A stretch of DNA of 32,000 nucleotides, taken from Nostoc punctiforme PCC 73102. GTDB taxonomy: Bacteria; Cyanobacteriota; Cyanobacteriia; Cyanobacteriales; Nostocaceae. The position numbers and the translations under genes are program-made. The notes under the pieces are model-generated. The model saw only the letters and a list, made by a program, of their open reading frames with translations, made no database searches and was not told the DNA's origin. The stretch is taken from contig NC_010628.1 of the NCBI RefSeq assembly GCF_000020025.1, positions 7,470,001 to 7,502,000 on the forward strand, in the 5' to 3' direction. This document shows positions 3,801 through 31,417 of the stretch, in pieces (the stretch's first letter is position 1; every line of letters begins with the position of its first letter).

Positions 3801-5013
3801 TTCTGTATGTATGAATTGGGTGAGTGAAGCGCAGAAGTTTGCTCCAACTCTCAATATTATTCAATTTTCTGGTGCTAACCGCCAAAAATTATTGGATGGT
3901 TTACAACCGTTGGATATGTTGGTATGCAGCTATGGTTTATTACAGCAGGAAGAAGTAGCGCAAATGCTTTCTCAGATACAGTGGCAAACTATTGTGCTAG
4001 ATGAAGCCCAAGCAATTAAAAATATGACCACTAAACGTTCTCAGGCAGCCATGAACCTAAAATCTAATTTTAAGTTGCTGACTACTGGAACTCCGATTGA
4101 GAATCACCTGGGTGAGTTGTGGAATTTGTTCCGTTTTATTAATCCTGGGTTATTGGGTTCTTTTGAAAGCTTCAATCAACGCTTTGCTACCCCCATTGAA
4201 AAATATCAAGATAAACTTGCACGTAATAAACTCAAAAAACTTATTCAACCATTTCTATTGCGGCGGACAAAAAATCAGGTGTTAGAAGAGTTGCCATCTC
4301 GTACCGAAATTCTCCTTCATGTAGAGTTAAGTCAAGAGGAAAAGGCATTCTATGAAGCATTGCGCCGTCAAGCAATATCTAAACTGACCGAAAGTGATGC
4401 AGAAGCAGGAAAGAAACATTTGCAGGTTTTAGCTGAGATTATGAAACTGCGTCGCGCTTGCTGTAATCCTAGTTTAGTGATGCCTGGTACTGAATTACCT
4501 AGTTCTAAGTTGCAACTTTTTGGTGAGGTGCTAGGTGAACTGCTGGAAAATCGTCATAAAGCGTTAGTGTTTAGTCAGTTTGTTGACCATTTGCATATCA
4601 TCCGCGATTACCTCGAACAACAAGGTATTAATTATCAATATCTAGATGGCAGTACTTCAGTGGCAGAGCGCAAAAAACGGGTCGATGCGTTCCAAGCTGG
4701 TTCAGGGGATGTATTTCTGATTAGTCTCAAAGCAGGGGGGACAGGACTTAATTTAACTGCGGCTGATTATGTGATTCATACAGATCCTTGGTGGAATCCC
4801 GCAGTGGAAGACCAAGCCTCAGACCGCGCTCATCGGATTGGGCAACAACGCCCGGTGACAATTTATCGCTTAGTAGCAAAGGATACTATCGAAGAAAAAA
4901 TTGTGGAATTACATCACCACAAACGAGATTTGGCAGATAGCCTGTTGGAAGGTACCGAGATGAGTGGCAAGATATCAACGGAAGCCTTGTTACAGTTAAT
5001 TAGTGAAAGTTAG
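802..5013 (+). CDS. SNF2/Swi2-family DEAD/H-box helicase with a long (~900 aa) N-terminal extension
   Basis: 1403-aa ORF. The C-terminal third carries SNF2 motifs: DYQMEGFCWL...LADQMGLGKTLQ (I), VLDEAQAIKN (II), LTTGTPIENHLGELWNLFRF (III) and QASDRAHRIGQQRPVTIYRL (VI). All antisense ORFs inside it look like shadow ORFs. Confidence 0.93.
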   Translation: MINLATDTTKLQIQLADKYFKLHPSIQKIIQLFSVIYAPIDKNSFVSCLSKIDALDENNKPWVTKTLSSQIDKLLKAGLLIQESRQGAECHPLLTEIATRHAVQTGQFETLVTAVEEKLPIRTHWNRDSRIFYNLRQCIREIRIGIYRQDLSFINQQIEAYQKYSDSEEKIVIEDIFEQIYNNPFDADWFNTLPQGLYESGISSILFNSALKLSASEDALMLLEEECSTPGKHCSDYLHLILTEQLLLQGCTQEAQESLGRISNEYQNNAAIFWGWLSFLRGDNEQAIKYYKDALKAIKKATGKRQIYFNTIGGLFFILALLKDGSAQSLREAEEYTSLMSRQSDHWLRFTYGRLKMVLQVHQGDITQKQFVVSGHISSVEEENSLQTLFCSLCLYWMDAESAKKRLLNLLEPLYRRSLASGYHWLAMETAELLSRLKPSSNYKQLAEALREDSNIQTIVDLIRPQEAWEMCLNALANLQKEPQTPGKPESELRLAWFITFYPSRCVLQPREQKVNAKGEWSKGRPIALKRLSSALSEFDYITPQDMRVCSCIEAYSDGYYGKVDYTFGEKAISALIGHPLVFWEDTLTIRVEIVKGEPELLVKKEKLGRLTLEFSPKLPESQNILHIKETPTRIKVIEITAEHRRIAEIIGIDNKLNVPAIAEKQVLAAINAVSGIVTVHSDIGGGSEGAEKVPAQTLPHIHLLPANAGLKISLLSRPFAQGGPYYRPGAGGETVIAEIDGKRLQTRRNLSEEKQLAKDAVAACATLTRTEEQDGEWIIEHLEDCLELLLELQELGNNVVIEWPQGEKLRVSHNADLKDFNLSIQRQQDWFAATGELKLNNDLVLDMQQLLELLEKTPSRFIPLGDGQFLALTQAFRKRLDELRMFSEKHSKGIRFHPLATLGLEDFVDEVGKVKADKHWKTHIQRLHEVKNLQPELPSTLQAELRDYQMEGFCWLARLAHWGVGACLADQMGLGKTLQALAVILRNAHEGPTLIIAPTSVCMNWVSEAQKFAPTLNIIQFSGANRQKLLDGLQPLDMLVCSYGLLQQEEVAQMLSQIQWQTIVLDEAQAIKNMTTKRSQAAMNLKSNFKLLTTGTPIENHLGELWNLFRFINPGLLGSFESFNQRFATPIEKYQDKLARNKLKKLIQPFLLRRTKNQVLEELPSRTEILLHVELSQEEKAFYEALRRQAISKLTESDAEAGKKHLQVLAEIMKLRRACCNPSLVMPGTELPSSKLQLFGEVLGELLENRHKALVFSQFVDHLHIIRDYLEQQGINYQYLDGSTSVAERKKRVDAFQAGSGDVFLISLKAGGTGLNLTAADYVIHTDPWWNPAVEDQASDRAHRIGQQRPVTIYRLVAKDTIEEKIVELHHHKRDLADSLLEGTEMSGKISTEALLQLISES

Positions 5014-5065
5014 CTGCTTGAAAGAAATTGCGTAGGCGCAGCCCGTCGTAGACATCGCACTTCAA

Positions 5066-5536
5066 CTAAAGAGCATATTCCAGCAATCGTTCCCACTCCC
5101 AATGCCAAGCAGTCTCTACTAATATTTCTTTGCCGTTGGTGAATTGAATAAATTCTTGCCCGTTGTCATAAAAAACATCAGCAACTAGACGATTACGCAC
5201 ATCATATCCCCATTTGGAAACTGCGGCATTCCACCACCTTTGACCTGCCGATTGCAATAGTGGTAGTTCCATGTATTCATCACGCCATGCCACAGGTTTC
5301 CATTGCTCCTGCAAAGCTCGAATTAAAATAGCGTTTGGAAAAACCTCTCTTTCCTGTTCTTGTAACCACAGTATGTATTCAATTGTTCTTCTCAAAGCAT
5401 CTTCTAGCCCATAAGTGCAGCCTTCAAGGGCAGTTTGGACTCCATCAAGGGAAAAATTTACCCCAATGGCTACTAATGCTCGTTCGTATTGCTTAAATAT
5501 CTCATATTCACCTGAATCTTCTGACCAGAACCACAC
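5066..5536 (-). CDS. hypothetical protein (Trp-rich, 156 aa)
   Basis: GTG start preceded by AGGAGG about 13 nt upstream on the minus strand. It is convergent with the SNF2 gene. No motif recognised. Confidence 0.6.
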   Translation of the reverse strand: MWFWSEDSGEYEIFKQYERALVAIGVNFSLDGVQTALEGCTYGLEDALRRTIEYILWLQEQEREVFPNAILIRALQEQWKPVAWRDEYMELPLLQSAGQRWWNAAVSKWGYDVRNRLVADVFYDNGQEFIQFTNGKEILVETAWHWEWERLLEYAL

Positions 5537-5849: not shown

Positions 5850-6200
5850 ATGAACGCTAAAATTATTGCTTTGTTGGGAATTACCGCAGCTTTTGCAAGC
5901 TTAGAAAGCCAGGTGTACGCCCAGTCACCAGCATCAAGCTTAAATCCAGGAAAATATAGATTAACAGGTGATTCTCTAGTCGGAATTGATAATAGAACAG
6001 CCCAAGATGACTTTGGAAAGTTTTTTGAGCAAACTAATCCAGCAACAATCTCTAACAATAATAGAAGAGACAAGACTCCAGTCAAAATCCACTTTAACGA
6101 GACATTATCACAGCCAGATACTTCTGTTTTCTTAACACCCGCTCAGTCTGGCAATGACAACGATGGATTGCAAGTACAGTTAGATTTAGGGAGAGAATAA
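5850..6200 (+). CDS. small secreted hypothetical protein
   Basis: ATG at 5850 gives MNAKIIALLGITAAFASLESQVYAQ, a signal-peptide-like N-terminus with an A-x-A-type cleavage context. The listed TTG at 5838 adds only 4 residues. The overlapping minus ORF 5786..6085 is judged spurious. Confidence 0.55.
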   Translation: MNAKIIALLGITAAFASLESQVYAQSPASSLNPGKYRLTGDSLVGIDNRTAQDDFGKFFEQTNPATISNNNRRDKTPVKIHFNETLSQPDTSVFLTPAQSGNDNDGLQVQLDLGRE

Positions 6201-6225
6201 TCAGGTATAAAGTTGGCGCTTTCAT

Positions 6226-6302
6226 GTAGGGTGTGTTGTTGCATAGCGCAACGCACCATTAACAATCCACTGTGCGTTAGCCTACGGCATAACACACCCT
6301 AC
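6226..6302. repeat. MITE-like inverted repeat (GTAGGGTGTGTT ... AACACACCCTAC)
   Basis: The 12-nt termini are perfectly complementary (6226-6237 vs 6291-6302), and the interior has the complementary pair gcgcaacgcac / gtgcgttagc. A hairpin aaaccca-cagagg-tgggttt follows at 6338-6357. Confidence 0.8.
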
Positions 6303-6473
6303 TGGCGTGGCTGATTAAGGAAATAATTGAGGGTTTGAAACCCACAGAGGTGGGTTTTGTCTGTATAGTTGCGATTCCTAACCACCCTTTTAACTAAATC
6401 CGCTTTCCTGAGTCGGTAATTCTGCAATCATTTTGCAGTAAAATTAATCGTCTAGATACAGGAGGGCTTTGAG

Positions 6474-7826
6474 ATGACTCGTGTCATCATTGTACGCCAC
6501 GGTCAAAGTGGTTATAACACCGAGCGGCGTATTCAGGGACGCACTGATGCGTCAACATTAACCGAGAAAGGTCGTAACGATGCAAGTATTGCTGGCAAAG
6601 CCCTCAGCAATATTTTATTTAATGCTATTTACAGCAGTCCCCTGCAACGAGCAAAACACACAGCAGATATTATCCATAGTGAGTTAGCTACTCATTCTGA
6701 ACAATCTGCTGTAATTCAAGTTTCTGATTTGCTACTAGAAATCGACCTTCCTTTATGGGAAGCACTGCTAACTGCTGAAGTTAAGCAAAAATTTGCCGAA
6801 GACTATCGCACTTGGCATCAACGCCCAGACGAACTGCGGATGCTGCTAAATGATGCACAGGGAACAAGAGAACATTTTCCTGTTCTTGCTTTATACGAAC
6901 AAGCGCGGCAGTTTTGGCAAGAAACTTTGTCTCAGCATCAAGGCGAAACTATTCTCATAGTGGGACATAACGGCATTAATCGCGCCCTAATTAGCACAGC
7001 CTTGGGAATCCCTGCAAGTCGCTACCATTCCATACAGCAGTCTAACTGTGGCATCAGCGTACTTAATTTTGCTGGAGGATTGGGCGAACCAGTCCAGCTA
7101 GAATCTTTAAATCAGACCCAACATACAGGAGAAACTTTACCCTCATTGCGACCAGATCATCAAGGAGTCAGGTTGTTGTTAGTGCGTCACGGCGAAACCG
7201 AGTGGAATCGCCAAACCCGGTTTCAAGGACAAATTGATGTCCCCCTCAACGACAACGGTAGACAACAGTCGCAAAAAGCAGGCGAATTTCTTCAAGAGGT
7301 AGCGATTGATTTTGCAGTAAGTAGCACAATGCTACGCCCTAAAGAAACAGCCGAAATTATCTTAAAACAGCATCCTAATGTAAAGTTAGACTTGCAAGAT
7401 GGTTTAAGAGAAATCAGCCACGGACTCTGGGAAGGAAAATTAGAAACAGAAATAGAACAAGAGTTTCCCGGAGAGTTGCAGCGCTGGCGCTTAGTACCCG
7501 CCCAAGTGCAAATGCCTGAAGGGGAAAATTTACAAGAGGTTTGGGAACGCAGCGTTGCAGCTTGGCAATCAATTGTGGAAGCAGCATTAACCAATCAATT
7601 CAAAACTGTATTAGTAGTAGCTCATGACGCTACAAATAAAACTCTACTTTGTCACATTCTGGGTTTATCGCTAGAAAATTTCTGGAATTTCCGCCAGGGT
7701 AATGGCGCAGTCAGCGTTATCGACTACCCTTCTGGAATCGGTGGTTTACCAGTATTGCAAGCGATGAACATCACCGCTCACTTTGGTGGAGGCGTACTAG
7801 ATAAAACAGCAGCAGGAGCATTGTAA
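6474..7826 (+). CDS. tandem-domain histidine phosphatase (phosphoglycerate-mutase-like) family protein
   Basis: Two RHG catalytic motifs, IVRHGQSGYN at the N-terminus and LVRHGETEWN near residue 236. Each is followed by a downstream His motif (VGHNG, VAHDA). RBS-like caggaggg lies upstream of the ATG. Confidence 0.88.
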   Translation: MTRVIIVRHGQSGYNTERRIQGRTDASTLTEKGRNDASIAGKALSNILFNAIYSSPLQRAKHTADIIHSELATHSEQSAVIQVSDLLLEIDLPLWEALLTAEVKQKFAEDYRTWHQRPDELRMLLNDAQGTREHFPVLALYEQARQFWQETLSQHQGETILIVGHNGINRALISTALGIPASRYHSIQQSNCGISVLNFAGGLGEPVQLESLNQTQHTGETLPSLRPDHQGVRLLLVRHGETEWNRQTRFQGQIDVPLNDNGRQQSQKAGEFLQEVAIDFAVSSTMLRPKETAEIILKQHPNVKLDLQDGLREISHGLWEGKLETEIEQEFPGELQRWRLVPAQVQMPEGENLQEVWERSVAAWQSIVEAALTNQFKTVLVVAHDATNKTLLCHILGLSLENFWNFRQGNGAVSVIDYPSGIGGLPVLQAMNITAHFGGGVLDKTAAGAL

Positions 7827-8038: not shown

Positions 8039-9343
8039 ATGACTGAACTGCTGCAAAAAGTACGGGTAATTGACCCAGTTTCTGAAATCGACGAAATCTT
8101 TGATGTGCTGATTGCTGATGGTCATATCAAAGAAGTAGCTTCGCACATTGCTGATATTCATCCCAATACTCAAATTAGAGATTGTCAGGGATTAGTTCTC
8201 GGTCCTGGGTTAGTGGATTTGTACAGCCACTCCGGTGAACCAGGATTTGAAGAACGGGAAACCCTGTTGTCTTTTTTACAAGCTGCTACTGCTGGCGGCT
8301 TTACCAGAGTTAGCATCTTACCCGATACATCCCCAGCTATTGATAACCCTGCACTTGTGGCACAGTTGCAGCAGAAGAGGGCAGAGGGGCAGAGGGGCAG
8401 AGGGGTAGAAGAGAATTTGTCTCCCTTGCTCCCCTGCTCCCCTGCTCCCCTGCTTCATATCTGGGGTGCTATCACCCTAGATGTTGCTGGAAACCAAATG
8501 ACAGAATTAGCAGATTTAGCGTCTGCTGGAGTTGTTGGTTTTAGCGATGGTAAGCCCTTTGAAAATTTGGCGCTGGTGCGGCGAGTGTTAGAGTATCTCC
8601 AGCCTTTGGGCAAACCAGTCGCATTTTGGCCTAGCGATCGCCAGTTAACTGCAAATGGTGTAATGAGAGAAGGGCCAGATGCACTCCGTTTCGGTTTACC
8701 CCCAATACCCGCCAGCGCAGAAACTACTGCGATCGCAGCAATGCTTGAATTGGTTGCAGCCATCGGTACACCAGTCCATATCATGCGCGTCTCCACATCT
8801 CGCAGCGTGGAATTAATCGCCTCAGCCAAGGCTGCTGGTTTACCCATCACCGCCAGCACCACCTGGATGCACCTTTTACTTGATACAAAAGCAGTTAAGA
8901 GTTATCACACTAGCTTGCATTTAGACCCGCCTTTAGGAAATCCGCGTGATGTTGCGGCGTTACGTGCAGGGGTACGTGCGGGTGCGATCGATGCGATCGC
9001 TATCGATCACACACCCTACAGCTACGAAGAAAAAGTCCAAGCCTTTGCCGAAGCCCCTCCAGGAGCGATTGGTTTAGAATTAGCATTACCTTTGCTGTGG
9101 CAATATCTCGTTGAAACTGAGGAATTTACAGCTTTAGAATTATGGCGGGCATTAAGTATCCGTCCAGCAAAATGTTTGGGGCAAGAAGTTAGTGCAATCG
9201 TACCTCATCAACCAGCAGAACTTACTTTATTTGACCCCCAGAAAATCTGGAATGTTGAACGAAAAAGTCTTTATACACTTTCACAAAATACACCTTGGTT
9301 AGGACAACAGTTGAAGGGTCATGTTGTGCAAACCTGGTGTTAA
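8039..9343 (+). CDS. dihydroorotase-like amidohydrolase (class I PyrC-like, with substituted metal-ligand positions)
   Basis: 434 aa with the overall PyrC pattern: PGLVDLYSHSGEPG (canonical D-x-H-x-H-x-R-E-P-G), VVGFSDGKP, and AIDAIAIDHTPYSYEEK (canonical DHAPH..EEK). Confidence 0.82.
   Translation: MTELLQKVRVIDPVSEIDEIFDVLIADGHIKEVASHIADIHPNTQIRDCQGLVLGPGLVDLYSHSGEPGFEERETLLSFLQAATAGGFTRVSILPDTSPAIDNPALVAQLQQKRAEGQRGRGVEENLSPLLPCSPAPLLHIWGAITLDVAGNQMTELADLASAGVVGFSDGKPFENLALVRRVLEYLQPLGKPVAFWPSDRQLTANGVMREGPDALRFGLPPIPASAETTAIAAMLELVAAIGTPVHIMRVSTSRSVELIASAKAAGLPITASTTWMHLLLDTKAVKSYHTSLHLDPPLGNPRDVAALRAGVRAGAIDAIAIDHTPYSYEEKVQAFAEAPPGAIGLELALPLLWQYLVETEEFTALELWRALSIRPAKCLGQEVSAIVPHQPAELTLFDPQKIWNVERKSLYTLSQNTPWLGQQLKGHVVQTWC
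8371..8455. repeat. intragenic, in-frame octamer-repeat quasi-palindrome inside the pyrC-like CDS
   Basis: GCAGAGGG x3 at 8381-8404 with degenerate flanks, then a 16-nt spacer, then CTCCCCTG x3 at 8429-8452 with a degenerate copy at 8421-8428. It encodes RAEGQRGRGVEENLSPLLPCSPAPLL. Confidence 0.85.
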
Positions 9344-9760: not shown

Positions 9761-10558
9761 TTACTTAGGTTCAAATCTGTTGACTTCAGCTGGTTTGCCA
9801 TCTTCCAAATCAGCTTGGACAAATTCAGCAGTCTTAGGCAAATTTATCTCAACGTTTAATAGAGGATCAATTTCTATTTTAGCATTTTGGAATTGTCCAT
9901 CTAAAATATGCCCTCCAGTTGTGTGATTTGCAGCGATGAAATGAAAGTGATAGCCATTAACATTTACTCCTTGCATATATTCGGGTGTCCGAAAACCGAC
10001 TAAAGTTCCATTGATATTCCTTAATTCAAAAATTGATTGTCCTTTTAATGCTTCAGCTAAAGAACGATAAGGCGGAGTTTGTTTAGGAGGAATTCTAAAT
10101 TTCACATAAGGAAAATTACCTTGGATACGAATAGCATAAGGATAATTTTTAGTTGGTAAGCGCCGATCTAAAGATTGCTGCAATTGTTTATAATTCATCC
10201 GCCCTTCTAGATTAATTAATGTTTCTGGTTGAAAAAAGGTGACTGTAGCAAAAGGGCTTGTCATCGAATCAGGAATAACAGAAGCAACCCCATCAGCTTT
10301 TATCTGGTAAAATTTGCCATCTAATCCAACCATTTCTCCATCCAGAGCATTTACTGTCCCCAAACCAAAATTACCGTGTTTTCTCAACTGCTTAAAATTA
10401 GTATTGCCGTCAAAAATTCCCACTGCAAGAGCGCTAATTGTTGATGTTTGAAATAGGGTATTTGATGACGTATATTGCTGAGTTCTAGCGGGTAAAATAG
10501 CAAATAATAGTGCAGTAATGGTTAAAATAGTTATCCAGAAATAACGCTTGAGTTTCAT
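9761..10558 (-). CDS. budA: alpha-acetolactate decarboxylase with an N-terminal signal/TM segment
   Basis: FQTSTISALAVGIFDG...GNFGLGTVNALDGEMVGLDGKFYQ and a GYHFHF zinc-ligand region match the ALDC family signature. The N-terminus MKLKRYFWITILTITALLFAIL is hydrophobic. Confidence 0.86.
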   Translation of the reverse strand: MKLKRYFWITILTITALLFAILPARTQQYTSSNTLFQTSTISALAVGIFDGNTNFKQLRKHGNFGLGTVNALDGEMVGLDGKFYQIKADGVASVIPDSMTSPFATVTFFQPETLINLEGRMNYKQLQQSLDRRLPTKNYPYAIRIQGNFPYVKFRIPPKQTPPYRSLAEALKGQSIFELRNINGTLVGFRTPEYMQGVNVNGYHFHFIAANHTTGGHILDGQFQNAKIEIDPLLNVEINLPKTAEFVQADLEDGKPAEVNRFEPK

Positions 10559-24667: not shown

Positions 24668-24816
24668 GCATTAACAATGCAAGCCAATGCATTGTTAATG
24701 CGTGAGCTTACATTGTTAATGTGTTGGCTTGCATTGCTAATGCGTGAGCTTGAATTGTTAATGCATTGGCTTGCATTGTTAATGCGTCAGCTTGAATTGT
24801 TAATGCATTGGCTTGC
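24668..24816. repeat. 21-bp-phased tandem array (six units of ATTGTTAATG-N11) preceded by one inverted unit
   Basis: ATTG(T/C)TAATG starts at 24691, 24712, 24733, 24754, 24775 and 24796, exactly 21 bp apart. The units alternate ...GCGTGAGCTTGA / ...GCATTGGCTTGC, giving a 42-bp super-repeat x3. gcattaacaatgc (24668-24680) is the perfect reverse complement of gcattgttaatgc (24689-24701). Confidence 0.92.
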
Positions 24817-25227
24817 AGTTTTCATGCATTTCCCTGCATTAAAAACGTTATGCTTTTACGCAAAACTGTACTTAGAAGACTACTTTGCTCAAATAGAGAT
24901 TGTAATTCTTGAGTAAAAGAGCGATCGCAGAATAATATATCACTCTCAATAATTTTTAAGCGCTTTCGGCAGTTCTAAGGCTTCTCCAATCCTGGATAAC
25001 TCTACACACCAATAGCATAAATTCGGCTACCATCTCAATTAACTTAACAAGAAGCAAAATTTCCTTGTTAAAGGTAAGCAAACTACCGCTCCGGTTTTTC
25101 GCTGAGTTGAGCTATGCCTACGCAAAGCCGCATAATTTTGGCAGACGACAGGCGGCGTTATACATTAATAAGTGTATCTGCAATACCGGACTTGTTCTGG
25201 CTTAGTCTCAATAGCAAAGGTTTGGAG

Positions 25228-26759: not shown

Positions 26760-26940
26760 TGGGCAAAGGTTAAAGAGGAAGGTAAAATTCCATACCTTTA
26801 CCGTTTAACCCTTCCACCTTTTCCCCACTTCTGCAAGAAGTCTAATGAGTTGTAGTTGGAGATTTTGCGATCGCCTTGCAGAACTTATTGAAAAACCTGC
26901 TAGTCTTTTTAAAAGATTAGCAGGCATGGCTTATCATCAA

Positions 26941-26987
26941 TCGGAGCGGCGGGATTCGAACCCACGACCTCCACTACCCCAAAGTGG
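26941..26987 (-). tRNA. 3' fragment (anticodon arm to discriminator) of tRNA-Pro(GGG); putative att core, not a complete tRNA gene
   Basis: The minus strand reads CCACT-TTGGGGT-AGTGG (anticodon arm, anticodon GGG, G37), AGGTC (variable), GTGGG-TTCGAAT-CCCGC (T arm), CGCTCCG-A (acceptor 3' strand + discriminator). The expected 5' acceptor CGGAGCG and D-arm are absent; the upstream sequence is ...attagggcttatacg. Confidence 0.85.
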
Positions 26988-27025
26988 CGTATAAGCCCTA
27001 ATACATCAATGGTTTGAACAATTGC

Positions 27026-28255
27026 ATGGCTGAGTTATGCAAGAACTATGCAACTCAGTCTATGTACGAAGCTGGTAAATCATCCTCTAGAGTACCCAAG
27101 ATTAAGCCACGCAACAATAATGGTGGAATTATAATCCGGTTTCAATACCAAGGTAAGCAATATACATTATCTCCTGGTGGTAGACACGACGATAAATTAG
27201 CCATTGCTAATGCTGAAAGAGTAGCAAGCCAAATCAAAACTGACATTTTAGCTGGCTATTTCGATTACACGCTAGAAAAGTACCAGCCAAGAGTTAAACA
27301 AGCTGACAATGTTGTTTCAATCAATCAGCAAATAGTATTCAATTTAAAAGACCTGTGGGAACAGTACAAAGTAGCTAAACAGGCAAGATTAGCTGAAACT
27401 ACTAAAAAGTCAATTTGGCGTGATGTCGATAGAATGCTAGGGAAGCTAATGGCAAATGATTTACTACCTGAGAATGCTTGTTTATTAGTAGGAAGATTAC
27501 TTGGCTTTTATAGTGCTAGTACACTTGAGAGGTTGTTAATTGAGATAGAAGCTTGTAGTAATTGGGCATTTGAAAATCACTTAACCCATACTCACATTTG
27601 GCGTAGATTAAGAAAGCAGTTACCAGAAAGACCTAAAAGTGAGAGAAGCAAAAAAGCATATTCTAGAAAAGAAGTTGATTATATAATCCAAGCTTTTGGA
27701 GGTGATTGGTACTGTAATTTAAATTCGGCATTTAAAGATAGCTACTATGCTGATTTCATAGAATTTCTATACCTCACAGGCTGTAGACCAGAAGACGCAA
27801 TAGCTTTAACTTGGGATTGCGTGAAAGATAATGTTATTGTCTTTGATAAAGCTTACTCTAAAGGCATTCTCAAGTCTACAAAAAATAACAAAGCAAGGCT
27901 GTTTCCGATTACTCCACAGATTAGACAATTGCTTGACAGAAGGGCAATTTATGTATCTACTCTGCTGAATAAGTTAGTGTTCCCCAGTCAAAAAGGTAAT
28001 CGTATAAACCTAAAGGATTTTACCCAAAGGTACACCAAGCGAATTATTGAAAACTTGGTAAGTGAAGGTAAAGTCAAACAATACTTACCTACTTACAACC
28101 TGAGAAATACAAGCATCACTCATTACCTAAGACAAGGTGTAGACATAGCTACAGTAGCAGCATTGATGGAAACATCAGAAGAGATGATTAACCAGCATTA
28201 CTGGAGTCCAGATGAGGATATCATCAACAACAATGTTCAATTACCAGAAATTTAA
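27026..28255 (+). CDS. int: tyrosine-type site-specific integrase with an N-terminal arm-type DNA-binding domain
   Basis: N-terminus KIKPRNNNGGIIIRFQYQGKQYTLSPGG...ILAGYFDYTLEKY (arm-binding/DUF3596-like). Catalytic-domain landmarks are TGCRPEDAIALTW (Arg), LRNTSITHYLRQG (His/Arg) and MINQHYW (Tyr). The start could be TTG 27014, ATG 27026 or ATG 27062. Confidence 0.9.
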   Translation: MAELCKNYATQSMYEAGKSSSRVPKIKPRNNNGGIIIRFQYQGKQYTLSPGGRHDDKLAIANAERVASQIKTDILAGYFDYTLEKYQPRVKQADNVVSINQQIVFNLKDLWEQYKVAKQARLAETTKKSIWRDVDRMLGKLMANDLLPENACLLVGRLLGFYSASTLERLLIEIEACSNWAFENHLTHTHIWRRLRKQLPERPKSERSKKAYSRKEVDYIIQAFGGDWYCNLNSAFKDSYYADFIEFLYLTGCRPEDAIALTWDCVKDNVIVFDKAYSKGILKSTKNNKARLFPITPQIRQLLDRRAIYVSTLLNKLVFPSQKGNRINLKDFTQRYTKRIIENLVSEGKVKQYLPTYNLRNTSITHYLRQGVDIATVAALMETSEEMINQHYWSPDEDIINNNVQLPEI

Positions 28256-28296
28256 AGCTTTAGTTATCGTTTCTATTAAAAATTAATTCAATACTC

Positions 28297-28330
28297 AAAA
28301 TCAGGTAATCATCAATTCCCTGATTTTTTT
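28297..28330 (+). terminator. rho-independent terminator after int
   Basis: aaaatcagg (28297-28305) pairs with cctgatttt (28319-28327), and the T-run extends to 28330. Confidence 0.72.
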
Positions 28331-28683
28331 ATATATCTGGTTATCACTACTCATTAAATTGGTATGAAATTATTTCAACTTGTGAGTGTTTAACTAAACC
28401 TTATAAATCAAATCGCCAAAACTTAAAACCTGATTACTTTAGCCACTTTTACGTTAGAAACTATATTTTTTACCTGCAAAGTATTAAAGTTCACTTATAT
28501 CAATTTTGATACAGGTGAAATTTTATTTAAATCAAGATTTCCTCATCATCTCGGATAATGATTACTTCTCTAGGTATAGAATCATCTTCTATTCCTAACC
28601 TAGCTAATCTTTCTAGATGGAGTAAATACCATAAATAGAAGGGTTAATTAAAATGTTGACTTTACAAGGGTTTGACTTTTTAT

Positions 28684-29123
28684 GTGCAGGTGTGGTGGGT
28701 AGTGTGCAGGTATACCTGCTTGACTGTAACGTATGCTGCATAAGGATTCTGGCTTTAGTGCAGGTGTGCAGGTGTGTGCAGGTATAACCTACTCAGCTAG
28801 AATACTTGCTGTGTATACGTTCTAGGCTTTTGTGCAGGTGTGCAGGTGTATTTCACCAAACTTTATATATTTGATGTTGTGTTATGCCCTAGCCAAATAA
28901 TTGGTAACTTATTAAGTTTCTTATGTACTTTTATAAAATATACCTTCACACCTGCACACACTACTGTAAAAAACCTTGAAACTACCGTTATATATACATT
29001 TCAGCTTGTGCAGGTGTCTGTGCAGGTGTATGATATAGTAATATAGTGAAAACCTTGAAACTACCGTTATATATACATTTCAGCTTGTGCAGGTGTCTAC
29101 CACTTTTTTAGTAATACCTGCAC
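28684..29123. promoter_or_regulatory. putative iteron-type replication origin
   Basis: GTGCAGGT direct copies at 28684, 28704, 28758, 28766, 28776, 28832, 28840, 29008, 29020 and 29087. Inverted copies (ACCTGCAC) are at 28950 and 29116. A palindrome GCAGGTATACCTGC lies at 28706-28719. An AT-rich ORF-free spacer at about 28851-28949 separates the two clusters. The region ends 9 nt from the primase-helicase stop. Confidence 0.62.
28970..29098. repeat. two perfect 50-bp direct repeats, 79 bp apart, inside the iteron region
   Basis: aaaaccttgaaactaccgttatatatacatttcagcttgtgcaggtgtct occurs at 28970-29019 and again at 29049-29098. Confidence 0.93.
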
Positions 29124-29131
29124 AGTTGTTA

Positions 29132-31417
29132 TTACCCTTCCAGAAAAGTAACTTTCATGTCAGTAGGAGTTAGTGTTTTAGGAGGCTTCTTACCTGTAAT
29201 AGTTTCTATATTGTTATGGAACCATAACATTTGTTGTGTACCACCTACTCTCACTCTTTTGTTATAAAACTTCAGTTTTTTCAGAGCAGATGTTATTTTA
29301 AGTTTTGATTTTTCAACATCTACTTTATCCCCAAATATTGCTGTAATTGCATCTATTAGATGAAAGCCTTCAGTTGCTAAAGTATCATTCCATTGTGTAC
29401 CACCTTGACCTACACGAAGATTATTTATCCATAGCACTAATTGACTTTCTGGTAAACTCTCTTCAGTATAGTTTTCATTGTGATACTTTTGTGCTAACTC
29501 CTCTGTTTTATTTAGCCACCATTTTTCTTTATTGCGATAAGCTGCTATAGCCTCAGCCCATATAAAATCTCTATTCTTTGCAACCCAATCTCTATCTAGT
29601 TCTTTGGTGATTTCACATACCCAATATCTTCTATTACCTGTAGTATCCTTCAGGATATCTTTATGGTTTGTAGTGCCGAACAGAACAAATCTTCTGAGTA
29701 TGTTTATTGATGACTGTGTGTAATACTTTCTCATTACATCTTTAGGTTTGGTAATAAAAGTTTTAATTTCCGCTTGACTTTTCTTACTAGAAAATCTTTC
29801 CCATTCGCCTATCTCACCGCACCATACACTTTTACAAGCAGCTACTATGTCATTGTCTCCAGTTTCATTGGGTAACGTAGCATAATAATCCTTGCCGTAT
29901 AAATCCTCAAAAAATTTGCTTTTACCTAATCCTTGTTCTCCATAGAATAAAATTACGTTGTCAAGATAACATCCTGGGTCGTATGCTCTAGCTACTGATG
30001 CTATTAAAAACCTTAGTACGTAAACACGTTCGATTGGTTCTCTTAATCCTAAAATCTCACAGAACTGTTCAATATATCCTGTGACTTTCATGCCGTACTG
30101 TTCTATTATTGAGTCACAGTAAGAAGTAACAGCATTGTAATGATAGTTAGTGTTGTTGACTACTATGAAATCTAATACATCCCTCAAGTCTTCAGTGCGT
30201 ATATCAATACCGTTTTCTATACCTAGTGGTATTCTTAATGTATTAGGTGTAACATTTTCACTGTTATATATAAAAGTTTCTTTATACACATCCCATTGTA
30301 AATTACCTAAGTCAGCTTCTTTAGTAACGATATCTACTAATGCTTCCATTTTCCCACCTTCATTTTTTACGCTAGATTTGTAAGTACTTTTATCTTTGCC
30401 AGCTTTTATACTTTTTTTGATTGTGGTACTTATTTCCTTTTCAGGTAGTCCGGTTTCACTAGCAGCATCGAATAGGCTTTCAAAAGCATCATCTTCATCT
30501 ATTACGCCTTCCCTTATTGCTCCACCAGCAATAAAACTGGCTTCATTTAATGTGTTGTTGCGACTACCTTCTGTTGCTTTACTTACTTTGTCTATCTGTT
30601 TTTGCAATATTGAAGGTATAGTTTTTTCAGATTCTTGAGCATAAACTTTGGCAGGTATCAAGTCTATTACTTCATTCTGATTTCTGTACCTAACACTAGG
30701 ATTACAATACGCAAGCTTAACTAGTTGTGGTTCTCCTTTCCTATGAAAAAATCCAGGTAGACGCATTACACGAGGTAAATCATGTACCTTCTTATCTGAT
30801 TCGTAGTGGCTAATAATTGACTGTTGGCTAGATTTGAACTGGTTTAGTTTTTCGTTATCTTCCAATAACCAGTAAATATGTCCTTTTTGTATCCCGTTGA
30901 CATTGCTAGTATTTACTATGACTGAAGGTTCTAAGTGACAGTGTTCAGGTAATCCATTCTTGTCACAATCAGCGTATAATGCACGAACATAGGTAATATC
31001 TTCAGTTTTTCGTGTATTGCCTGCTGTCTGATTGATAGTAACAAATATGCCAGCATCTTTATTATTTAATTTAACTAGTTCATTTTTACACTCATCAAAA
31101 GCACCATAGAGTTGTCTAGTTAGACTTTCGTCTTTACGTTTCTCATTATCATCAAAAGTTTGGAATAAAAATTTATATTCCTCAAAGTCTGTGAATAAAT
31201 CATTCCCACATAATGCACTTAAAAACTTTTCAGTATCTTCAAAGTTAAATGATGAGTCAGTACCTATATTTTCTTGATAAAATTCTGTAAATTCGTTATA
31301 ATTAGTAACAGTTGAATTGTTCATTGTTTTCATTGTATTGTCATTTTTTGAGTAGTTCATTTGTTTGAGTTCGCCTGTGTAAGTAAAGGGGTCATTTTCT
31401 CTAGGAAATAGTTTCAT
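29132..31417 (-). CDS. replicase: AEP-type primase-polymerase-like N-domain + PriCT-1-like linker + VirE/D5-like P-loop NTPase
   Basis: N-domain: AGIFVTINQTAGNTRKTEDITYVRALYADCD...HIYWLL...RLPGFFHRKG. Middle: EGSRNNTLNEASFIAGGAIREG (PriCT-like G-x-RN-x-L). C-domain: Walker A FYGEQGLGKSKF and Walker-B-like VLFGTTN. RBS ggagaaaaaacaaa lies before the ATG. Confidence 0.88.
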   Translation of the reverse strand: MKLFPRENDPFTYTGELKQMNYSKNDNTMKTMNNSTVTNYNEFTEFYQENIGTDSSFNFEDTEKFLSALCGNDLFTDFEEYKFLFQTFDDNEKRKDESLTRQLYGAFDECKNELVKLNNKDAGIFVTINQTAGNTRKTEDITYVRALYADCDKNGLPEHCHLEPSVIVNTSNVNGIQKGHIYWLLEDNEKLNQFKSSQQSIISHYESDKKVHDLPRVMRLPGFFHRKGEPQLVKLAYCNPSVRYRNQNEVIDLIPAKVYAQESEKTIPSILQKQIDKVSKATEGSRNNTLNEASFIAGGAIREGVIDEDDAFESLFDAASETGLPEKEISTTIKKSIKAGKDKSTYKSSVKNEGGKMEALVDIVTKEADLGNLQWDVYKETFIYNSENVTPNTLRIPLGIENGIDIRTEDLRDVLDFIVVNNTNYHYNAVTSYCDSIIEQYGMKVTGYIEQFCEILGLREPIERVYVLRFLIASVARAYDPGCYLDNVILFYGEQGLGKSKFFEDLYGKDYYATLPNETGDNDIVAACKSVWCGEIGEWERFSSKKSQAEIKTFITKPKDVMRKYYTQSSINILRRFVLFGTTNHKDILKDTTGNRRYWVCEITKELDRDWVAKNRDFIWAEAIAAYRNKEKWWLNKTEELAQKYHNENYTEESLPESQLVLWINNLRVGQGGTQWNDTLATEGFHLIDAITAIFGDKVDVEKSKLKITSALKKLKFYNKRVRVGGTQQMLWFHNNIETITGKKPPKTLTPTDMKVTFLEG

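Follow-up and report, generated by a model that had tools for sequence, protein, structure and literature searches.

A probable SaPI-like replication origin downstream of the primase-helicase gene of an integrative element in Nostoc punctiforme

We identified the probable vegetative replication origin of an integrative element of about 10.3 kb that is inserted at a tRNA-Pro(GGG) gene in the filamentous cyanobacterium Nostoc punctiforme PCC 73102. The putative origin is a 440-bp region (positions 28684-29123) of a 32-kb stretch of DNA (NC_010628.1, positions 7,470,001 to 7,502,000; hereafter the window, whose coordinates are used throughout), and it carries an array of the octamer GTGCAGGT directly 3' of the gene for a primase-helicase, Rep. 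An earlier note, made from the letters of the window alone, had proposed that this array is the origin of the element and that the octamer is the site recognized by the replicase; all computational tests run here, which addressed position, layout, footprint, and Rep homology, favored that proposal. The assignment is supported by comparison, namely by the enrichment of the repeat, the conservation of its position and layout, the switch to other octamers in Nostoc relatives that are more distant, and Rep's homology to a characterized initiator. By analogy with known systems, we infer that Rep binding, DNA melting, priming, and replication would take place at the array.

The octamer has 13 exact matches in the window, compared to 0.78 expected from shuffled sequences, among which the maximum was 4. 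Twelve of the 13 are concentrated in the 440 bp, with ten copies on the plus strand (at 28684, 28704, 28758, 28766, 28776, 28832, 28840, 29008, 29020, and 29087) and two on the minus strand (at 28950 and 29116), the same counts that had been given before; the sole copy outside the array lies at 2990. All copies of the element form a single cluster (L001:8225-8578 on Logan contig L001, which spans the element), and the background outside clusters amounts to 1 copy in the rest of the window, none in the rest of the element, 1 in the related contig L004, and none in the related contig L006. The motif extends to T-GTGCAGGT-(G/A)-T, present as GTGCAGGTGT nine times and as GTGCAGGTAT three times.

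The array occupies the rep-side half of an 876-bp intergenic region in which the integrase gene (int) and rep converge, and it consists of two sets of iterons. The set far from rep (28684-28847, plus strand) comprises seven copies on degenerate 74- to 82-bp repeat units (families D3 and D4). The set near rep (28950-29123) holds five exact iterons. A 79-bp tandem duplication (family D1) carries three of these and includes a perfect 50-bp direct duplication with a period of 79 (28970-29019 and 29049-29098). This duplication, the back-to-back copies (28758/28766/28776 and 28832/28840), and the palindrome GCAGGTATACCTGC at 28706-28719 had all been described in the earlier note and were recovered in our scans. 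The iteron nearest rep occupies 29116-29123, and 8 nt (29124-29131), not the 9 counted previously, separate it from the rep stop codon (29132-29134). In the short-read contig L001, one 79-bp unit is missing relative to the window (L001:8217-9013), which probably reflects assembly collapse, a real length polymorphism being possible.

The proposed minimal origin (28832-28957; inverted repeat I1) lies where the two sets meet. It is composed of the tandem pair 28832/28840 on the plus strand, a 94-bp spacer (28848-28941), and an inverted pair on the minus strand, in which a one-mismatch iteron at 28942 stands in tandem with the exact copy at 28950. The spacer, which corresponds to the AT-rich stretch of roughly 100 bp noticed earlier between the iteron clusters, is 75.5% AT, versus 65.5% for the whole element, and ranks between the 95th and 99th percentiles of 94-bp windows. 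It also contains the 40-bp windows with the lowest stability in the intergenic region (starts at 28896 and 28906). No DnaA box (TTWTNCACA) is found in the intergenic region, and a promoter and terminator scan of 28100-29300 returned fewer promoter-like sites than shuffled sequences and called no terminator. Classical iteron plasmids of the RepA/pPS10/F/R6K type have regularly spaced 17- to 22-bp iterons, DnaA boxes, and a RepA initiator with two winged-helix domains. We rejected this class for the Nostoc array, which has units of 8 to 10 bp, some of them back-to-back, no DnaA box, and a primase-helicase as the initiator.

The rep gene (29132-31417, minus strand) encodes a 761-aa protein identical to an N. 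punctiforme VapE-domain protein. Its predicted parts are an archaeo-eukaryotic primase (AEP)/RepB'-type primase domain (residues ~59-250), PriCT-like helices (269-343), a VapE/superfamily 3 (SF3) helicase (~370-650), and a C-terminal helix-helix-helix-hairpin domain (678-733). In Pfam, the VapE-like match is strong (1.6e-59), and the RepB_primase match (PF16793; 4.1e-5) scores 24.0 bits, just below the 24.3-bit cutoff. Residues 436-601 match PDB entry 7pds, at 4.9e-18 by sequence and at 6.1e-36 with a family profile; this entry is SaPI1 Rep, from a Staphylococcus aureus pathogenicity island (SaPI), bound to double-stranded DNA (PMC9371898). The AlphaFold model of the Nostoc protein has a mean predicted local distance difference test score (pLDDT) of 80, and Foldseek aligned it to 7pds with an E value of 9.7e-16 and a target-normalized TM score of 0.64 over 453 to 468 columns, with chains of 448 to 457 residues. 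The N-terminal domain matched RepB' (3h20; 1.7e-6) and the AEP domain of the cyanophage S-2L PrimPol (6zp9). In the model, residues 678-733 form three helices and a beta-hairpin in the order of a winged helix (pLDDT, 75 to 85). Judged from sequence and predicted structure, the part of Rep from the helicase to the C terminus is homologous to SaPI1 Rep in both sequence and fold.

The SaPI origin lies immediately downstream of rep and consists of 6 to 12 penta- or hexanucleotide iterons with an AT-rich center and at least two iterons per side in opposite directions; the iterons are read by a C-terminal winged helix of Rep, and in SaPI5 the primase and Rep are fused (PriRep5) (PMC9371898). This agrees with the statement in the earlier note that SaPI origins lie immediately 3' of rep with iterons flanking an AT-rich region. 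The Nostoc module resembles this design closely: the array begins 8 nt past the rep stop codon, its 12 exact iterons fall within the published range, the center is AT rich, and at least two iterons per side are opposed. Moreover, Rep is predicted to be an SF3 self-loading helicase homologous to SaPI1 Rep, its primase-helicase fusion recalls PriRep5, and the element carries a tyrosine integrase. What sets the Nostoc system apart is an AEP/RepB'-type primase domain, a filamentous cyanobacterial host, and the placement of the outer iterons on long tandem duplications. Furthermore, no terminase, capsid-remodeling, or interference genes were detected in the element, whereas helper dependence defines the phage-inducible chromosomal islands (PICIs). 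Of the five features of the SaPI Rep-ori module, three are found here, a fourth, a C-terminal winged helix that reads the iterons, has a candidate in residues 678-733, and the fifth, packaging or interference genes as part of the PICI lifestyle, was not detected in the element. Because no packaging genes are recognizable, we leave the element unclassified and call its origin SaPI-like.

These similarities suggest how the origin could work. The C-terminal domain of Rep, with its winged-helix-like topology, would bind the octamer as T-GTGCAGGT-(G/A)-T, and the inverted pairs at 28832-28847 and 28942-28957 would place two self-loading SF3 hexamers in opposed orientation on either side of the 94-bp spacer. 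The spacer would then melt, the N-terminal AEP/RepB'-type domain would make primers, and a host polymerase would extend them. The eight outer copies, on the 74- to 82-bp and 79-bp units, probably raise the local occupancy by Rep or set the copy number, as do the crr region of phage P4 and handcuffing in plasmids.

Three related loci share the octamer. Contigs L004, L006 (from Nostoc sp. FACHB-133), and L009 encode Rep proteins 74, 67, and 70% identical, respectively, to that of N. punctiforme, and each has eight copies of GTGCAGGT just 3' of rep. They also share the core, in which a tandem pair faces an AT-rich spacer of ~95 bp followed by an inverted tandem pair. In the alignment, 93.6% of the iteron columns are invariant, versus 69.2% for the DNA between the iterons (Fisher P = 3e-6), a footprint-like pattern. 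Compared to these relatives, the N. punctiforme origin has two extra tandem duplications, one of 74 bp (28751-28849), which amounts to one additional unit relative to L004 and L006, and one of 79 bp (28970-29098). The elements are mosaic: between L001 and L006 or L004, the DNA is 75 to 80% identical in rep, 79 to 85% in the iteron zone, and 96.5% in the segment on the integrase side. The mosaic break points coincide with the iteron cluster, a possible hot spot of recombination. In L009, the 70%-identical rep and its GTGCAGGT cluster share the contig with a gene for a telomere resolvase (L009:273-1415; ResT/TelK catalytic domain, 1.2e-17), and no tyrosine integrase was found on the available 9.8 kb of this contig. 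L009 may be linear, with hairpin ends, and rely on the same cassette for its replication. Genes of defense type also occur in or around the related elements: L004 carries a complete type I restriction-modification system between a tRNA-Arg gene and rep (L004:1965-8037), and the host DNA flanking the L006 element contains a pPIWI-RE module (L006:18474-22304).

In more distant relatives, the layout is kept and the octamer is not. L007, from Nostoc sp. CENA543 and with a Rep 41% identical to that of N. punctiforme, uses ACAGGACA, and L010, with a Rep 32% identical, uses TGGGGACA, both at the same position and with the same arrangement of inverted pairs. Between the N. punctiforme and L007 proteins, the C-terminal 100 residues are 22% identical, versus 52 to 56% in the helicase core. 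A comparison of homologous elements for covariation between octamer and replicase, which had been suggested as a check in the earlier note, yields other octamers in the same layout together with a diverged C terminus in the pair N. punctiforme and L007. L007 also contains a defense-type gene, for a NUMOD4/HNH endonuclease, immediately upstream of rep (L007:1609-2085) and a second integrase.

We compared octamer counts by 500-bp tile at 47 distant genome loci that have just the primase domain in common with Rep. The tile directly after the gene had the strictly best count in 15 of these loci, versus 2.28 expected (binomial P = 3e-9); among viral contigs, it was best in 4 of 19, versus 1.33 expected. 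A double-iteron search of viral contigs gave 26 loci without a cluster of copies and a single contig, L102 (IMGVR_UViG_3300006801_000168; 52% GC), with 13 copies of GTGCAGGT at 5976-6332. These lie directly 3' of a gene for a Prim-Pol/PriCT-2/D5-like primase-helicase that is barely related to the Nostoc Rep, and they are laid out as a pair, a spacer, and an inverted pair, as in the N. punctiforme core. We considered a DNA-binding domain common to the two proteins, which could have accounted for the identical octamer, and rejected it, as a profile comparison of the C termini gave a probability of 0.9%. Since the C termini show no homology and the relatives of the L102 protein that are 72% identical to it (L119-L122) use AAAGGCCACAAT, the shared octamer probably reflects a coincidence of specificity and not common descent.

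Several observations weigh against the assignment of the array as the origin. The AT content of the spacer exceeds that of the element, itself AT rich, only moderately, and it is equaled in the part of the intergenic region on the int side. The C-terminal domain of Rep, modeled alone, gave no significant Foldseek match (best E value, 0.15), with many winged-helix proteins in the list. The Nostoc iterons span 8 to 10 nt, compared to 5 to 6 nt in SaPIs. L004, L006, and L009 are not independent samples, because they are mosaic and closely related. In addition, the position of the array is not universal, since two cyanobacterial VapE plasmids have their clusters in the 3' part of the gene or ~1 kb downstream. 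In pCC7120delta of Nostoc sp. PCC 7120 (L149; NC_003273.1), GGTGGAAC occurs 20 times, versus 0.28 expected (5062-5333, 6678-7004, and 8198-8261), with one cluster inside the 3' part of the VapE-domain gene, one ~1.1 kb downstream, and two further copies; by analogy, this arrangement looks like a two-part origin in the style of P4. In pAL20115c (5.8 kb; Cyanobacterium aponinum), a small repeat cluster lies within the 3' part of the VapE gene.

The satellite phage P4 also offers an objection: its annotated record places crr (4291-4590), and not the initiation site, directly 3' of the alpha primase-helicase gene. The Nostoc array could accordingly be a cis-acting enhancer or copy control element that is bound by Rep, with initiation elsewhere in the element. 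Formally, crr is the nearest counterpart of the outer, duplicated copies. It is built from a pair of 120-bp direct repeats that each contain five 8-bp "ori type 1 repeats" oriented both ways, and ori lies ~4.5 kb away; the Nostoc octamers likewise occur in both orientations on long direct repeats (79 bp and 74 to 82 bp), 3' of a gene for a primase-helicase of ~770 aa and near int. Origin binding in P4 has reportedly been assigned to the C-terminal domain of alpha. On the other hand, P4 ori and crr are two separate sites, both needed in cis, whereas the 10.3-kb Nostoc element has one GTGCAGGT cluster and no second site able to serve as an origin. An initiation site would also be expected to look like the conserved core, with inverted pairs on both sides of a spacer that is AT rich and melts easily. 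Rep also shows no similarity to P4 alpha in BLASTP (best E value, 2.1), the primase domain of P4 is of a different type, and a terminator separates alpha from crr in P4, whereas the first iteron in Nostoc begins 8 nt past the stop codon. We consider it unlikely that the array as a whole acts like crr and keep this reading as a minor rival; for the outer copies, a crr-like function is likely.

The origin reading also has to be weighed against a role of the array in recombination. Host genes stop near 26.9 kb, where the GC content falls from ~0.42-0.49 to 0.33-0.36. The left attachment site is one copy of a 72-bp direct repeat (26918-26989) that comprises the 3' 49 nt of tRNA-Pro(GGG) (26941-26989) and 23 nt downstream; on the minus strand of 26941-26989, the anticodon loop TTGGGGT, the T arm, and the 3' strand of the acceptor can be read by eye. 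ARAGORN found no whole tRNA at 26918-26989 because the tRNA there is truncated, and a permissive Rfam search of 24-32 kb gave only noise apart from an 18-nt T-arm match, which is the tRNA-Pro fragment. The complete tRNA-Pro gene lies outside the window, at the element's other end. The related element on L006 occupies the same site; its far end carries an intact tRNA-Pro(ggg), and the repeat occurs again beside its integrase gene. L001 (10,309 bp) runs 30 nt into the 72-bp repeat at each end, from which we deduce an element of ~10.3 kb with its right end outside the window. We do not take L001 as evidence for an excised circle, since a stop 30 nt inside the repeat is what a k=31 assembly yields at any repeat.

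The inward-facing integrase gene (27014-28255, plus strand) encodes a tyrosine integrase (Phage_integrase, 5.9e-15; Arm-DNA-bind_2, 2.2e-7 in Pfam), whose start may be the ATG at 27026, giving 409 aa. Downstream of it, a hairpin with 13-nt arms and a 5-nt loop (28297-28327; inverted repeat I18), is flanked by an A run and, on the opposite side, by a T run and probably terminates transcription in both directions; a simple terminator scan did not call it. As the integrase has an N-terminal arm-type DNA-binding domain and the array sits between int and rep, some or all GTGCAGGT copies might bind the integrase arm domain or an excisionase, and the earlier note had allowed for arm-type sites among them. 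However, arm-type sites flank the att core at distances of up to a few hundred bp and accompany their cognate integrase, and here the att core lies upstream of int, 1.7 to 2.2 kb from the array. In the attP junction, which we reconstructed as the end of L001, TCGAATCCCGCC, and the start of L001, there is no exact GTGCAGGT, and the only match with one mismatch belongs to the core derived from the tRNA. A repeat of another sequence, TATGCAA, marks the junction, with eight copies in the whole element, versus 2.6 expected; all lie at the ends (L001:109-415 and 10216-10233), within ~400 bp of the attP core, and none elsewhere. Two of them, with (A)GTTGCATA on the other strand, are seen in the window at 27036-27053 (plus strand) as candidate arm-type sites, and on sequence grounds the TATGCAA copies are likely to serve the integrase or an excisionase in this way. 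Finally, the array is kept where this integrase is not: the recombinase-like gene of L004 is a different one (478 aa) that matches Phage_integrase only weakly, L009 has the protelomerase, and in L102 a separate 13-copy cluster stands next to an unrelated primase-helicase gene. Binding of GTGCAGGT by the recombination machinery is therefore highly improbable, and the suggestion of arm-type sites in the array does not hold up.

A small DNA-binding protein of the element, other than Rep, might use the array as an operator or as a centromere-like partition site, as arrays of short repeats can act as centromeres. One gene product of the element, 60 aa long, weakly matches transcription regulators and ribbon-helix-helix domains, and the element also has a divergently transcribed gene of 137 aa. 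Nevertheless, the array is situated at the converging 3' ends of two genes and not at a promoter, and no ParA- or ParB-type genes were detected among the open reading frames (ORFs) of the element. PHROGs and Pfam scans of its other ORFs found no terminase, capsid, interference, partition, or conjugation family, the best match being one weak hit to a transcription regulator. The cluster also stays beside rep across mosaic elements and unrelated primase-helicase families. We regard an operator or partition site as improbable, and a replication origin used by Rep as the better account of the array.

Between int and the array lies a conserved, noncoding, hairpin-rich block (28470-28690), bounded by a one-mismatch iteron (28472-28479) and, inverted, by the first exact iteron (28684-28691). 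In three elements with Rep proteins 67 to 74% identical, 213 of 224 alignment columns of the block are invariant, and the folding of either strand has a z-score of about -3.6. L009 lacks the block, which is part of the mosaic segment that is ~96.5% identical between elements; because mosaicism explains part of its conservation, we claim no function for it. The block might signal priming to the RepB'-type primase domain or give rise to a regulatory or small RNA. In this respect, the IncQ plasmid RSF1010 offers a comparison, as the N-terminal domain of Rep resembles RepB' (PF16793; 3h20) and both systems combine iterons with an AT-rich region. IncQ plasmids have a separate RepA helicase, RepB' primase, and RepC iteron binder, 20-bp iterons, and ssiA/ssiB hairpins. 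In the Nostoc element, by contrast, a single polypeptide would do all of this, and the hairpin-rich block is at most a candidate ssi site.

We found no publications on this element in literature searches. In architecture, it resembles the tycheposons and cryptic integrative elements of marine picocyanobacteria (bioRxiv 10.1101/2020.12.28.424599) in its cyanobacterial host, its size of ~10 kb, its insertion at a tRNA 3' end, an inward tyrosine integrase at one end with an adjoining small primase/helicase replication module, and the lack of conjugation or capsid genes. The host differs (Nostoc versus Prochlorococcus). Membership in that group depends on a lineage-specific tyrosine integrase and shared hallmark genes, and our comparison is one of architecture; the passages of the preprint that were searched do not mention origins of the present kind. 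Outside the element, the host DNA at 24688-24840 is tandemly repeated (period, 21 or 42 nt), overlaps a 79-aa ORF (24677-24916) with a repetitive LLMRELELLMHWLA-like sequence, and gave weak, spurious Rfam matches to miRNA families.

The Nostoc array is most likely a new example of a known design, that of SaPI origins, and not a system of a new kind; it would extend the SaPI and P4 model to another host group. It leaves views on how such origins work unchanged and would not surprise a specialist. It does, however, assign a probable origin and a probable initiator recognition sequence to a previously uncharacterized integrative element of a model symbiotic cyanobacterium, and the ~2.9-kb piece that contains rep and the origin (~28.6-31.5 kb) could serve Nostoc vectors as a compact replicon. 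A working rule is also suggested: for primase-helicase fusions with this primase domain, in many phyla, the place to look first for the origin would be the few hundred bases past the stop codon, with inverted octamer pairs around an AT-rich gap as its signature. Nostoc tRNA islands and the protelomerase contig L009 use the same cassette, and the unrelated L102 primase-helicase has an identical octamer. On this basis, we tentatively raise a broader idea, which at present we hold to be doubtful: rep and the downstream iteron cluster could be a portable, self-contained replicon cassette, with a platform of two inverted pairs ~60 to 100 bp apart and an easily melted spacer conserved from staphylococcal islands to cyanobacteria. 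If this were true, the origins of thousands of uncharacterized primase-helicase elements would be predictable from sequence alone, and a compact new replicon would be available for Nostoc.

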